Source of the DNA: a virus
Taxonomy: Duplodnaviria > Heunggongvirae > Uroviricota > Caudoviricetes
Strand: one strand, 5' to 3'
IMG/VR virus record: IMGVR_UViG_2657245570_000017
Coordinates: 1-36,299 of that record
Length of the DNA stretch: 36,299 nucleotides
Part shown: in pieces, positions 31,990 to 36,299 of the stretch
Layout: every line of letters begins with the position of its first letter
Position numbering within the stretch: position 1 is the stretch's first letter
Translations under genes and position numbers: made by a program
Notes under the pieces: model-generated
Database searches by the model: none
What the model was told of the DNA's origin: nothing
The model's input: the letters and a program-made list of their open reading frames with translations, nothing else

Positions 31990-32144
31990 AGCTTCAGCCC
32001 CTTGTATCCGTTAAATGATTCGGCAACAATCATCACCCACCACGCGCGTAATCTCACCCCTGCGCCGTTCTCCCGCCACGGCGACAACAAAAAGCAGTAA
32101 CCCCCTCCGCACGCACATGCGACCATGCCACACAGGGAGGGAGC

Positions 32145-33256
32145 AGATGACCGACACCACCATGCAATTGCTCAGTCAGGGCACAGACCCCGTGAAAATG
32201 CCGGATTTTGATATTCTCGCCGAGGGTAAAACGCTGTCCGGCGTGGCAGAACGCCTGATGAGCCTGTCACTGACCGACAACCGGGGATTTGAGGCGGACC
32301 AGCTCACCATCACGCTGGATGATGCCGATGGCCAGTTGCAGCTACCGCCACGGGGCGCGCGTCTGACGGTTCTCATTGGCTGGAAAGGGGAACCGCTGAC
32401 AGAAAAAGGCACTTACATTGTTGATGAAATCGCTCACGAAGGACCGCCGGACAGGCTGACTGTTTCAGCCAGAAGCGCAGATTTTCGGGATGAATTTAAC
32501 GTTAAACGTGAGGTGTCATGGCATGATGTGACCGTTGAGCGTGTGGTATCCGCCATCGCTCATCGGTACGGCCTGAAACCGCAAATCAGCGAAATGCTGA
32601 TGGATATCGAAATCGACCACGCCGACCAGACTGAAGAAAGCGACATGTCCTTCCTTACGCGCATGGCGGAAATGCTGGGCGCAATCACCACGGTAAAAAG
32701 CGGTAATCTGTTATTCATCATGCCCGGCGGTGGCGTGAACGCACAGGGCCAGCCGTTGCCATCGTTCGCCATCACACGCAGCAGCGGCGATCGCCATCAG
32801 TTCCGCATTGCTGACCGCGAGGCGTATACGGGGGTACGCGCTTACTGGCTTGATCTTAATTACGGGAAAAAGAAAAAAGTCAGCGTGAAACGCCGCAAAC
32901 CGCCAAAACCCAAAAAGGAGAAAAGCAGCAGCCGTGAAGGTGATTATATGGAAGGCGCAGAAGGCAATGTGTTTGTGTTACGCAAGACTTATCAGAACGA
33001 GCAGGCAGCAAGACGCGCAGCGGCGGCAAAGTGGCAGCAGCTACAACGCGGAGCCGCATCATTTTCCATCACGCTGGCACGCGGACGCGCAGAACTCTAC
33101 CCCGAAATGCATGGCACGGTAACAGGATTTAAAAGCGAGATTGATAATCAGGACTGGATTATTGCAAAAGCCGAGCACACCATTGATAACAGTGGCTTTA
33201 CCACGCAGCTTGAGCTTGAGGCAAAAATCCCGGAATGGATAGCGGAAATAGAGTGA
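32145..33256 (+). CDS. D: Tail protein D (late control gene D family)
   Basis: ATG at 32145 with GGGAGGGAG RBS, 370 aa; immediately upstream of ogr as in P2. Confidence 0.7.
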
Positions 33257-33298: not shown

Positions 33299-33559
33299 AT
33301 GTTCCGTTGTCCGCTTTGTGGCGCATCTGCCCGTATCCGCACCAGTCGTTCGGAAAATGATTCAAACACCGTACGGAAAAAATATTACCAGTGTAACAAC
33401 CTGGAATGCGGCGTATGCTTCTCAACACTGGAAGCCTTCCATAAATTCACATCAAAACACGCCTCCGGCGTTCACTCTTCAGAAGGTATCCCGTGGCATG
33501 AGCTGCCAGCTTCACACAGGGGAAACAATCAGATGAGTTTGCCTTTACCTCAGAATTAA
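33299..33559 (+). CDS. ogr: Ogr/Delta-type zinc-finger late transcription activator
   Basis: MFRCPLCG...YYQCNNLECGVCF, a C2-C2 finger resembling P2 Ogr MFHCPLC...YHQCQNVNC as recalled. Confidence 0.8.
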   Translation: MFRCPLCGASARIRTSRSENDSNTVRKKYYQCNNLECGVCFSTLEAFHKFTSKHASGVHSSEGIPWHELPASHRGNNQMSLPLPQN

Positions 33560-33750
33560 CAGGCAGAATTGCCGGAGTAACAAAAAAGCGATAGATTACG
33601 CGCGGGTGCCTTTCGGCTGATGGTCGGAGGGAATACCCGAAGGCCAGATGTGGAAAGGCCCCGGAAAACATTTCTGTTTAACCGAGGCCCTAACATATCT
33701 ACCTTAAGCAAGTGATAGGTTAGCGCCTCTCCAACAAAGGAGCAAGCGCT

Positions 33751-33891
33751 ATGTCGCAAAAATCGCTTACGGCCATCACGTTCTGCGTGACGGTAATCCT
33801 CATCATCTGGATGCTGCACGGTTCGCTGTGTGAAATACGGATGAGCTTCTGGGGAGCGGAGTTTGCGGCGTTCTTACAGTGTAAGCAGTAA
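33751..33891 (+). CDS. Hok/Gef-family type I toxin (46 aa)
   Basis: AAGGAG RBS; hydrophobic helix ITFCVTVILIIWML followed by the family signature SLCEIR and AEFAAF (compare Hok KSLCEIR...EVAAF as recalled). Confidence 0.7.
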   Translation: MSQKSLTAITFCVTVILIIWMLHGSLCEIRMSFWGAEFAAFLQCKQ

Positions 33892-33978
33892 GGAAACCGC
33901 GACGGGGGAGCAATCCCCCGTCAATCGGTTGCTAAGGTTGGCTGAAGTGGCACCCTATCTCTCAGACATGAACAACAA

Positions 33979-34011
33979 ACCCGCAGCGTAAAAACTGCGG
34001 GTTTTCTTTTT
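33979..34011 (+). terminator. Rho-independent terminator of the hok-like transcript
   Basis: ACCCGCAG-CGTAAAAA-CTGCGGGT followed by TTTCTTTTT. Confidence 0.7.
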
Positions 34012-34054
34012 GCTACCCTCACAAATGAGGGCACCATACATAAGCAATAGGCAT

Positions 34055-34100
34055 AACAGATCGATGCAATAAATCCGATCGATAAAAACGATCGATTTGT
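34055..34100. promoter_or_regulatory. Cluster of three GATC (Dam) sites upstream of com-like gene
   Basis: GATC at 34059, 34077 and 34090, each within CGATCGAT-like context. Confidence 0.5.
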
Positions 34101-34140
34101 TATCATATCGGCAGCAGTAACCACACAAGAGGTGCCGCAA

Positions 34141-34338
34141 ATGACGCAAAATGTACGATGCAAAAATTGCAACAAACTACTTGCCCGCGCCTCATTTCAC
34201 TACATTGAAATAAAATGTCCGCGCTGCAAAACACTTAACCAGATAACGAGAGCCATCGAGCACCCCACACACATGAGGAGTTATGACCGTGGGGATCGCA
34301 ATCCGGCACCAACCAGCACATACACCGGAACACACTAA
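34141..34338 (+). CDS. com: Com-like zinc-finger translational activator
   Basis: 65 aa from ATG at 34141 (AAGAGG RBS); CKNCNKLL...IEIKCPRCK matches Mu Com CKNCNKLL...IEIRCPRCK as recalled; overlaps the downstream gene start. Confidence 0.75.
   Translation: MTQNVRCKNCNKLLARASFHYIEIKCPRCKTLNQITRAIEHPTHMRSYDRGDRNPAPTSTYTGTH
34263..34294 (+). promoter_or_regulatory. Stem sequestering the methyltransferase RBS and start codon
   Basis: CCCCAC (34263-34268) pairs with GTGGGG (34289-34294), enclosing GAGGAG and ATG 34283. Confidence 0.5.
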
Positions 34339-35074
34339 GGTTTATCAGACTGACAATGCCACGCTCTGTCGTGGGAATGCACTGGAAATATTGCCGCTGA
34401 TTGAGCCAGAAAGTATTGATGCCTTAATCACTGACCCGCCTTACAGTTCGGGCGCGACACACAAGGCCGGACGCACCAACCAGGGCAGCCACGCAAAATA
34501 TCTGAACGGCGAGAACCTTCATCGCTTTGATGGGTTTGCGGGTGAAAACATGGATGCCCGTTCGTGGGCTTACTGGACACAATTATGGATGGCACAGGCA
34601 CACCGCGCAGTCAGGCCGGGCGGTTATGCCCTGGTATTTACTGACTGGCGACAACTGCCAGCTTTAACCGATGCGTTTCAGGCCAGCGGTTTTACATGGC
34701 GTGGAATCATTGCGTGGAACAAAGGAAGGGGGTCACGAACACCCCATACGGGGTATTTCCGGCATCAGTGCGAATACATCGTCTGGGGCAGTAAAGGCCA
34801 TTTAGGTAAATCGCCTTCGGGACCGTTCGACGGCTGCATGACGTTCCCGGTTATCCCATCAAAGAAAATGCACCCGACCGGAAAACCAGAAGAACTTATG
34901 GCAGAACTGGTCAGGACTGCGAATAGTGGTGGAACAGTCCTTGATCCTTTTATGGGATCGGGAACAACGGGTGTTGCAGCACTAAAAGCAGGACGCAAAT
35001 TTATTGGTATAGAAACCAGTGATCATTATTTTGATGTAGCAACACAACGGCTCAAAACGGCGATCGAACCATAA
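34283..35074 (+). CDS. DNA methyltransferase (N6-adenine/N4-cytosine, beta class)
   Basis: 263 aa; DPPY motif (ITDPPYSS) precedes the AdoMet motif DPFMGSGTTG; alternative GTG start at 34289. Confidence 0.85.
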   Translation: MTVGIAIRHQPAHTPEHTKVYQTDNATLCRGNALEILPLIEPESIDALITDPPYSSGATHKAGRTNQGSHAKYLNGENLHRFDGFAGENMDARSWAYWTQLWMAQAHRAVRPGGYALVFTDWRQLPALTDAFQASGFTWRGIIAWNKGRGSRTPHTGYFRHQCEYIVWGSKGHLGKSPSGPFDGCMTFPVIPSKKMHPTGKPEELMAELVRTANSGGTVLDPFMGSGTTGVAALKAGRKFIGIETSDHYFDVATQRLKTAIEP

Positions 35075-35078
35075 GACA

Positions 35079-35100
35079 AAGCCCGCAATGTTGCGGGCTT
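35079..35100 (+). terminator. Hairpin after the methyltransferase (weak terminator)
   Basis: AAGCCCGCA-ATGT-TGCGGGCTT, 9-bp stem; poor T-run. Confidence 0.45.
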
Positions 35101-35118
35101 ACTCTACCTCTCGAAAAT

Positions 35119-35136
35119 GTGGTCACTGCGTGGACA
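35119..35136. repeat. Putative attR core
   Basis: GTGGTCACTGCGTGGACA, direct repeat of 11-28; phage-type genes end to its left and a host gene starts to its right. Confidence 0.5.
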
Positions 35137-35303
35137 TACGCTGATACAAATCCTTTTATATCAAGAAATTAAATCTTTGTTTTTTTCATCAACAAGGATT
35201 TTCACGTTTGTGTTACCTGTATGAGACGAGAGTTAACCGGACAAGTGTGCCATAATCTCGCGGCCAGGCATACTTGCGAAGATTTCAGGTATAAGGATAC
35301 GTA

Positions 35304-36299
35304 ATGATACAACCTATTTCCGGCCCTCCTCCTGGGCAACCACCAGGTCAGGGAGATAACCTGCCGTCTGGCGCGGGCAATCAGCCTTTATCCAGTCAGC
35401 AACGTACTTCGCTGGAAAGCTTAATGACGAAAGTGACCTCACTGACGCAACAGCAAAGAGCAGAACTGTGGGCGGGTATCAGGCACGATATTGGTCTGTC
35501 GGGAGATTCACCGCTGCTTTCGCGTCACTTCCCTGCCGCTGAGCACAATCTGGCGCAACGTCTGCTGGCCGCGCAAAAAAGCCATTCTGCCCGCCAGCTT
35601 TTAGCGCAATTAGGGGAGTATTTACGTCTGGGGAATAATCGTCAGGCGGTCACGGATTATATCCGTCATAACTTTGGTCAGACGCCGCTGAATCAGCTCT
35701 CACCGGAGCAATTAAAAAACATTCTCACCCTGTTGCAGGAAGGGAAGATGGTTATTCCGCAACCGCAGCAGCGCGAGGCGACCGACCGTCCTTTATTACC
35801 GGCGGAGCACAATGCGCTTAAACAGCTGGTGACCAAACTTGCGGCGGCAACGGGAGAACCCAGCAAGCAGATCTGGCAATCGATGCTGGAACTTTCCGGG
35901 GTGAAAGATGGTGAGTTAATTCCAGCGAAACTGTTTAACCATCTGGTGACCTGGCTGCAGGCGCGTCAGACGCTAAGCCAGCAAAATACGCCGACGCTGG
36001 AATCACTACAGATGGCGCTGAAACAACCTTTAGATGCCAGTGAACTGGCGGCGTTATCGGCATATATCCAGCAAAAATATGGTCTTTCTGCGCAATCATC
36101 GCTTTCTTCAGCCCAGGCCGAGGATATTCTTAATCAGCTTTATCAACGGCGGGTTAAAGGGATTGATCCGCGTGATATGCAACCGCTGCTTAATCCTTTT
36201 CCACCGATGATGGACACGTTGCAAAATATGGCAACGCGTCCCGCGCTGTGGATACTGTTAGTCGCGATTATCCTGATGCTGGTCTGGCTGGTTCGTTAA
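35304..36299 (+). CDS. flk: Host flagellar regulator Flk
   Basis: 331 aa; MIQPISGPPPGQPPGQ N-terminus and C-terminal hydrophobic anchor match enterobacterial Flk as recalled; stop at window end. Confidence 0.65.
   Translation: MIQPISGPPPGQPPGQGDNLPSGAGNQPLSSQQRTSLESLMTKVTSLTQQQRAELWAGIRHDIGLSGDSPLLSRHFPAAEHNLAQRLLAAQKSHSARQLLAQLGEYLRLGNNRQAVTDYIRHNFGQTPLNQLSPEQLKNILTLLQEGKMVIPQPQQREATDRPLLPAEHNALKQLVTKLAAATGEPSKQIWQSMLELSGVKDGELIPAKLFNHLVTWLQARQTLSQQNTPTLESLQMALKQPLDASELAALSAYIQQKYGLSAQSSLSSAQAEDILNQLYQRRVKGIDPRDMQPLLNPFPPMMDTLQNMATRPALWILLVAIILMLVWLVR

Follow-up and report, generated by a model that had tools for sequence, protein, structure and literature searches.

A Mu-like com cassette precedes a beta-class DNA methyltransferase gene in a P2-like E. 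coli prophage

The 36,299-nucleotide (nt) stretch of DNA analysed here (IMG/VR virus record IMGVR_UViG_2657245570_000017, positions 1 to 36,299; hereafter the window) is an essentially complete P2-like E. coli prophage with an integrase fragment at its left edge. Toward its right end, a gene for a Com-like zinc-finger protein overlaps a DNA methyltransferase (MTase) gene in the manner of the com–mom operon of phage Mu. An initial annotation had proposed a Mu-like translational-control module that drives a methyltransferase instead of Mom; the downstream gene indeed encodes a PF01555 protein and not a Mom homologue, and the Mom-coupled loci that we compared with it fall in separate groups. The elements of the locus are as follows.

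34056–34092: OxyR-type site with three Dam sites (GATC at 34059, 34077 and 34090), a homologue of the GATC region of the Mu mom promoter, Pmom
34079–34106, plus strand: predicted sigma-70 promoter, with a -35-like TCGATA at 34079–84 (4/6), a 16-nt spacer and an extended -10, TG-t-TATCAT, at 34098–34106
34141–34338, plus strand: com, 65 aa, ATG at 34141 (alternative GTG at 34132), a CCCC zinc ribbon of the form CKNC...CPRC
34248–34264, plus strand: putative Com-binding RNA motif, GAG-AG-CC-AUC-GAG-CA-CC, inside com codons A-I-E-H-P
34263–34294, plus strand: translation-inhibition hairpin, CCCCAC (34263–68) facing GUGGGG (34289–94), 6-bp stem, 20-nt loop
34283–35074, plus strand: beta-class DNA amino-methyltransferase gene, 263 aa, PF01555 (N6_N4_Mtase) E 3.5e-33

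The first gene had been read as a Com-like zinc-finger open reading frame (ORF), and profile searches bear this out. Its product matches the Pfam model Zn_ribbon_Com (PF10122) at E 9.5e-12, with 44.6 bits against a cutoff of 22.9, and the PHROG family phrog_13819, "gpCom control of modification", at E 2e-17; over 42 aa it shares 60% identity with Mu Com, and the four cysteines of the two proteins align. No NCBIfam model captures the protein above its cutoff. A Shine–Dalgarno (SD) sequence graded good, GAGG at 34129–32, lies 8 nt ahead of the ATG. The overlap between com and the MTase ORF, estimated earlier at about 55 nt, measures 56 nt, and a terminator scan found none between the two genes. 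Relatives were recovered by scans with Com, which yielded some 35–37 loci of the window type, all with gpD, ogr or hok upstream, along with Mu-type and other com–mom loci (individual loci are designated L plus a number below). The scan of genome contigs gave 6 loci only, because its patterns were narrow.

The second gene likewise agrees with its first assignment as a beta-class amino-methyltransferase. DPPY (residues 51–54) stands before FMGSG (223–227), the beta-class motif order, and a PF02086 search of the protein gave no match, the order being opposite to that of the D12, Dam-related alpha class. The nearest PDB chains, 5hek and 5hfj (DpnA in the depositors' naming; E 1e-20) and CcrM, are beta-class adenine MTases, and N4-cytosine enzymes match the protein more weakly than these adenine MTase structures do. 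From its DPPY motif, the enzyme is probably an N6-adenine methylase. Beyond PDB chains at E 1e-20 no close characterised homologue was found; identity is 48% to the MTase of phage Smp131, 42% to gp20 of phage KS5 and 78% to the MTase of a com-less E. coli P2-like prophage (L090). The candidate identity M.EcoGII was rejected, as that enzyme has 349 aa, comes from a different prophage and has no com in its paper. A literature search for methylome data on carrier strains, including the O145 RM strains, found nothing usable. Among window-type loci the MTase occurs in C-terminal length variants of 263 aa and 268 aa, which correlate with flk versus other DNA downstream and probably reflect different attachment-site (att) or integration contexts. 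In 3 of 37 loci (L011, L026 and L035) com is intact but the MTase ORF, counted from its normal start, is cut to 66, 173 and 97 codons; such truncations could reflect prophage decay or counter-selection against the enzyme.

When the Mu right end (NC_000929; L002) was aligned with the window, DNA homology spanned the GATC triad, com and the sequence up to GUGGG, directly after which it ended. Within this segment the two phages share the 18/13 spacing of the GATC sites, Com, the Com RNA motif and the arms of the translation-inhibition structure (TIS); com overlaps its target gene in both, and both modules sit at the end of the phage genome. The overlap in Mu is 80 nt to the annotated ATG, or about 50 nt to the GUG, compared with 56 nt in the window. 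Where Mu carries Mom, the window carries a beta-class S-adenosylmethionine methyltransferase, and the TIS loop, 11 nt in Mu, has 20 nt in the window and includes a new SD and AUG. Missing from the window is the Mu segment from AACCACAC to the com SD, with its -10 TAAGAT and start site; the C-activator site belongs to the same promoter region of Mu. In the window the extended -10 follows directly after GATC III. Pmom is C-dependent, whereas the P2-like phage of the window has no C or Mor homologue (best E 0.75 in a search of the window). Since the C-dependent promoter is absent and an extended -10 lies by the triad instead, the timing of expression need not equal that of Mu. The earlier suggestion that Mu control logic operates here is supported, and by more than was visible to its author, since the GATC/OxyR site, Com, the Com RNA motif and the TIS arms are, as judged by alignment, homologues of the Mu elements; one correction to it is that the C-dependent promoter of Mu is missing.

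In Mu, Com activates mom translation by binding beside the TIS (PMC6483171). The corresponding stem is present in the window, but the ribosome-binding site and start codon, which had been placed inside it, are arranged differently. The SD GAGGAG (34275–80) and the AUG at 34283 lie in the enclosed 20-nt loop, outside the paired arms, and only an in-frame GUG (34289), at the position of the Mu start codon, is part of the 3' arm. The minimum free energy (MFE) fold of 34240–34305 includes the stem (-17.5 kcal/mol, z -2.23; 6 of 200 shuffles fold as well), and the CCCCAC/GUGGGG stem is present in every predicted fold. Base pairs were counted in 16 unique sequences with an anchored script, which we used because MAFFT misaligned the 3' arms, the loop lengths being different. 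All 6 TIS pairs are standard in 16/16 sequences, and no variant disrupts the stem. Every Mom-coupled sequence has U-A as its outermost pair where the window type has C-G, a compensatory exchange that is silent in both overlapping reading frames; in one sequence a TIS C-G is changed to U.G. Rfam holds no family for the com/TIS RNA, and its only match was a sub-threshold sok upstream.

The start codon of the MTase is ambiguous between AUG 34283 and GUG 34289. GGAG lies 2 nt from the AUG and 8 nt from the GUG. In a homologous cassette (L093), whose CCCCAC/GUGGGG arms are identical to those of the window and whose 20-nt loop is homologous, GUG within the hairpin is the sole possible start. The com-less MTase homologue, on the other side, begins TTG-ACC-G, which resembles AUG-ACC-G of the window.

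Beside the hairpin, the core CC-N3-GAG of the putative Com site occupies 34253–34260. It agrees with the bipartite consensus GAG(N)2CC that Nowacka et al. obtained by systematic evolution of ligands by exponential enrichment (SELEX) in a study that also places the mom GUG start in the TIS stem (PMC6483171); the Com RNA motif CC(N)2-3GAG was established there by SELEX, electrophoretic mobility shift assay (EMSA) and selective 2'-hydroxyl acylation analysed by primer extension (SHAPE). A GCC-NNN-GAGCAYCCCAC block, with GUGGG further on, is conserved in all recovered com genes coupled to Mom or to a beta-class MTase, and 35 unique com 3' regions, either Mom- or window-MTase-coupled, preserve the motif. 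Across about 37 window-type loci, CC-N3-GAG and the four cysteines are strictly kept while nearby synonymous sites are variable. At the motif itself the MFE fold predicts a 3-bp hairpin different from that of Mu. At the hairpin junction, a nucleotide that is U in Mu but C in the window has the alternative of closing the Com hairpin; its partner there covaries as well, being A or G in the Mom types and G in the window.

These observations bear on a different view of the protein, in which Com would be a DNA-binding transcription factor that activates or represses the operon promoter. All that favours it is the PGAP/RefSeq product name, "Com family DNA-binding transcriptional regulator". This name is misleading, because the characterised member of the Com family is an RNA-binding translational activator, with mom mRNA as its target (PMC6483171). 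The conserved motif, moreover, is situated within the transcript beside the start-site hairpin and not in the promoter, and we give this view next to no credence.

Upstream of com, the three GATC sites that had been noticed earlier have the same 18/13 spacing as those of Pmom (L002 860/878/891). Each is part of a GATCGAT heptamer, of which the window holds no others, and the 45-bp GATC blocks of the window and Mu are identical at 30/45 bases. It is these heptamers and the Mu spacing, not GATC density, that mark the triad as homology and not chance. Dam and OxyR control mom (PMC2909390). We scored the window against the OxyR tetramer consensus quoted in the same paper, ATAGnTnnnAnCTAT-N7-ATAGnTnnnAnCTAT, over 20 scored positions. 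The segment 34056–34092 scores 15/20, the best in the window, where just 9 of about 36,260 positions reach at least 13, and the peak has the same register to the middle GATC in the window and in the validated sites of Mu (13/20) and agn43 (14/20). The predicted promoter, the sole promoter-like match in 33700–35350, would start transcription near 34113; counted from that start, the three GATCs are at about -54, -36 and -23, so bound OxyR would be expected to block the promoter itself, in the manner of the OxyR(BC) site of gtr. Parallels in layout are agn43, with three GATCs spaced 19/13 and an OxyR site overlapping the promoter, and P22 gtr, in which a 13-bp GATC pair lies inside an OxyR half-site and the OxyR site again overlaps the promoter. 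The 19/13 spacing is also found in two other com–mom loci.

The triad is kept with exact spacing in most window-type variants, and TGnTATCAT is unchanged in all of them, including those without the triad. Reduced forms occur at positions of about 2420–2500 in their loci: one GATC in L004, loss of the middle GATC in L014, and none (AATCAAT) in L039–L041. The single GATC of L004 apparently arose through recombination between GATCGAT repeats.

The origin of the arrangement is illuminated by the com-less MTase gene already mentioned. It lies at L090 2944–3708 (E. coli strain 2-1, NZ_CP097198.1), immediately behind ogr in a P2-like prophage beside copA; its start codon is TTG, and com, the GATC triad and the hairpin are all absent. 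The residues that the window encodes at the MTase N-terminus, inside the com overlap, are absent from this type of protein, consistent with grafting of the com cassette onto an existing P2-type MTase moron. By this comparison, L090 likely represents the un-grafted state of the cargo gene.

What the comparisons show is the anatomy of the elements, their homology to Mu and their conservation across related loci. These form the basis of the following proposal, which we consider likely: a Mu-type com cassette has recombined onto a beta-class MTase moron, so that transcription would be gated by Dam and OxyR, Com would open the hairpin, and the MTase would protect phage DNA. Its functional side, namely control by OxyR and Dam, dependence on Com, the activity and target of the enzyme and the time of its expression, is inferred by homology to Mu. 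Transcription would proceed from the extended -10 sigma-70 promoter (TGtTATCAT, 34098–34106) that abuts or overlaps the OxyR site. OxyR would bind unmethylated GATCs and repress; Dam methylation would exclude OxyR and turn transcription on. From the resulting bicistronic mRNA, Com would be made first, from its good SD, while the CCCCAC/GUGGGG hairpin closes the MTase initiation region (SD 34275–80, AUG 34283 or GUG 34289). Binding of Com to the adjacent CC-AUC-GAG (34253–60) would then open the hairpin and allow MTase translation. The enzyme, probably forming N6-methyladenine (m6A), would modify the DNA of phage and host alike, most plausibly to protect progeny DNA from restriction.

Several observations weigh against this proposal. 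The folding signal is modest, with z -1.65 against shuffles for 96 nt and -2.23 for 66 nt, and invariance of the stem is by itself weak evidence, since the arms are also constrained by two overlapping frames. An inner helix, CAUGA/UUAUG, which would pair the AUG, was considered as a conserved feature and discarded, as natural variants break it. The window homologue of the 4-bp Com hairpin of Mu has an A.A mismatch at its second pair and is weaker than in Mu. Taken alone, GATC density says little, for a triple this tight would occur somewhere in 36 kb with P about 0.23, and the promoter is a consensus match only. The variants with reduced triads (L004, L014 and L039–L041) retain the extended -10, com, the hairpin and the MTase, so OxyR/Dam control would be dispensable in those lineages. 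Lastly, the com ORF continues 44 nt past the hairpin; ribosomes translating com would unfold it, and activation could partly be translational coupling.

Carried to its end, this last point gives an account in which the cassette is a relic, the MTase being translated by ordinary coupling without any Com–RNA interaction and the triad no longer controlling the promoter. The extension of com past the hairpin, which its translation must unfold, the intact modules of triad-less variants and a Com hairpin weaker than that of Mu would all be expected on such an account. Mu, however, has the same overlap geometry, yet the Com protein is reported to be required there (refs 13 and 14 as cited in PMC3299994; PMC6483171). 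Strict conservation of CC-N3-GAG and the four cysteines amid variable synonymous sites, and retention of the triad with exact spacing in most variants, also argue against a relic. We regard it as quite unlikely, and prefer a cassette in which Com and the triad still act.

When such a cassette would act is a further matter. The module may be silent in the lysogen and switched on solely in the lytic cycle by a phage factor (e.g. Ogr) or by read-through, with the extended -10 not being the functional promoter; this is compatible with the proposed mechanism and concerns its timing. Against it, a terminator separates the upstream genes from the module, the window encodes no C or Mor homologue, and TGnTATCAT is invariant. 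The TGT-N12-ACA dyad is the signature of Ogr-type late promoters, and a search for it upstream of com found none, a weak test in that the pattern also failed to mark the prophage's own late operons clearly. For it, the Mu operon is a late function, and prophage MTases are often silent in lysogens, as reported for M.EcoGI and M.EcoGII (PMC5778455) and for ST131 prophage MTases (PMC4659465). On balance we hold lytic-only expression to be possible, though doubtful.

Conversely, a constitutive-looking promoter within an OxyR–Dam site like those of agn43 and gtr might give heritable ON/OFF, phase-variable expression of the MTase in lysogens. The agn43 and gtr switches, which have been shown to phase-vary, control surface structures, in contrast to the MTase of the window, and phase variation of mom has been posed as an open question (PMC2909390). 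We think this outcome improbable. If true, about 3% of E. coli would harbour a prophage-borne, Dam/OxyR-switched MTase, in effect a "phasevarion" working by a new type of mechanism, with Com and the TIS as a second, translational threshold.

A com gene followed by a methyltransferase in place of mom is already known and is not a new arrangement, as published phages and existing annotations attest. Genes resembling com precede methyltransferases at the mom position in FluMu (Hin1523), Pnm1 (Nma1821), Hia5 and phage B3, with putative Com sites at the 5' end of hin1523 (PMC3299994). Like the window, FluMu, Pnm1, Hia5 and B3 (ORF47/48) have a Com homologue immediately upstream of a Mom-replacing MTase; their enzymes, however, are alpha-class, non-specific m6A MTases related to Dam, with motif I before DPPY, in transposable Mu-like phages, whereas the window has a beta-class PF01555 enzyme in a P2-like phage. 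Closer in phage type, KS5 was annotated in 2010 with a "Com translational regulator" (gp21) overlapping an N4/N6 methylase (gp20) (PMC3091744). KS5 and Smp131 (gp05/gp04) resemble the window in being Peduoviridae with a PF10122 Com overlapping a PF01555 MTase, but their pairs are located elsewhere in the genome, next to tail-sheath or portal genes. An E. coli-type GATC triad was not seen in the KS5 and Smp131 stretches that we read, and the KS5 and Smp131 papers do not discuss regulation. Existing annotations also include the exact module, as "gpCom control of modification" and "DNA methyltransferase" in phage Chuche, and under the names "Com family DNA-binding transcriptional regulator" and "DNA-methyltransferase" in 171 of 5,426 complete E. 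coli genomes.

Among other prophage enzymes, M.EcoGI and M.EcoGII are tightly silenced in lysogens (PMC5778455). They share with the window MTase its beta class, prophage location and E. coli host, and differ from it in being non-specific enzymes of 349 aa from a different prophage; their paper mentions neither com nor mom (PMC5778455). In Pseudomonas, com-like genes stand ahead of bacteriocin genes, among others (PMC6240691).

Our scans add further cargoes. In Azonexus (L006) and Acinetobacter (L007), com is joined to a D12 alpha-class MTase (PF02086). L093 1937–3207 (LC727881.1), a Mu-like phage inserted in an Stx2c phage, couples com to a 350-aa C5-cytosine methylase (PF00145, E 2e-42). Its Com is 65% identical to that of the window, and it has two of the three GATCs, 13 bp apart. 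A C5-cytosine methylase as cargo of a Com cassette was not found in the literature that we examined.

The com–MTase pairs of KS5 and Smp131 are independent of that in the window, and their hairpins differ from it: an anti-SD CCUC(C) follows directly after the Com motif. These hairpins, too, sequester the SD, as in the predicted fold of Smp131, and so speak for the proposed mechanism. In KS5 (L096 1221–1403, minus strand), Azonexus (L006, about 2600–2640) and Smp131 (L092 2110–2165), the Com motif CC-ACC-GAG or CC-CA-GAG either has CCUC(C) directly behind it or is part of AGAGCC, and these sequences can pair with the downstream SD (GAGG, GGAG or GGCUCU). The pairing potential suggests that distant com–MTase pairs may use an anti-SD version of the same switch.

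Another com–mom group (L042–L059) lies at the ends of viral contigs of about 34–36 kb and has a 61-aa Com, two GATCs 18 apart and a C-rich leader, CCCCCAGCCCTCCGGG. Nothing similar to gpD, ogr or hok was found within 2.5 kb upstream of its members, and for that reason they are probably Mu-like and not P2-like.

Taken across these phages, the Mu com cassette behaves as a portable unit made up of the Dam/OxyR site, com, the Com RNA site and a start-hiding hairpin. It is joined directly after a GUG-GGN start to unrelated modification genes, namely Mom and the alpha-class m6A, beta-class and C5-cytosine MTases, and it moves between Mu-like and P2-like phages. About 3% of complete E. coli genomes carry the module, whose MTase would be tightly regulated. 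Expression in lysogens would give host methylomes an additional, unrecognised and possibly switchable layer; lytic-only expression would make the MTase an ordinary anti-restriction function. The value of the locus lies in a clean demonstration of cassette modularity and in the question of lysogen expression, not in a new principle.

The initial annotation had also placed the module at the prophage end, and the neighbouring genes agree. The flanking elements are as follows.

32015–33256: gpD gene, right end of the prophage
33299–33559: Ogr/Delta zinc-finger gene, right end of the prophage
33751–33891: Hok-family toxin ORF (PF01848 E 3.7e-7; NCBIfam HokA E 6e-9)
33977–34004, plus strand: intrinsic-terminator-like hairpin and T-run, with a 10-bp stem, AAACCCGCAG...CTGCGGGTTT, then TCTTTTT
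35079–35100: GC-rich hairpin with a 9-bp stem, directly past the MTase stop at the boundary between prophage and host (flk)
35304–36299: host gene flk (NCBIfam Flk E 1.9e-152)

With ogr and hok on one side and flk on the other, and with the integrase coming after the module in the free phage Chuche (96.6% identical over 33900–35200), the module occupies the ogr-to-att "moron" position. Judged by its stem and T-run, the hairpin at 33977–34004 would end the upstream hok-like unit and insulate the com module. The hairpin past the MTase stop scores as terminator-like on the minus strand and is without a T-run on the plus strand.

Between ogr and the com module lies a hok/sok-type type I toxin–antitoxin (33604–33891). 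The Rfam sok match at 33604–33761 (47.9 bits, E 3.5e-9) falls short of the gathering score, 59, and roughly half of the related loci have a divergent Hok, 48% identical, in place of the window-type one. A perfect inverted repeat, CCCTCA-caaa-TGAGGG (34017–34032), stands between the terminator after hok and the three GATC sites; it is present in most window-type variants, its place being taken by unrelated sequence in others (e.g. L001, L009 and L017).

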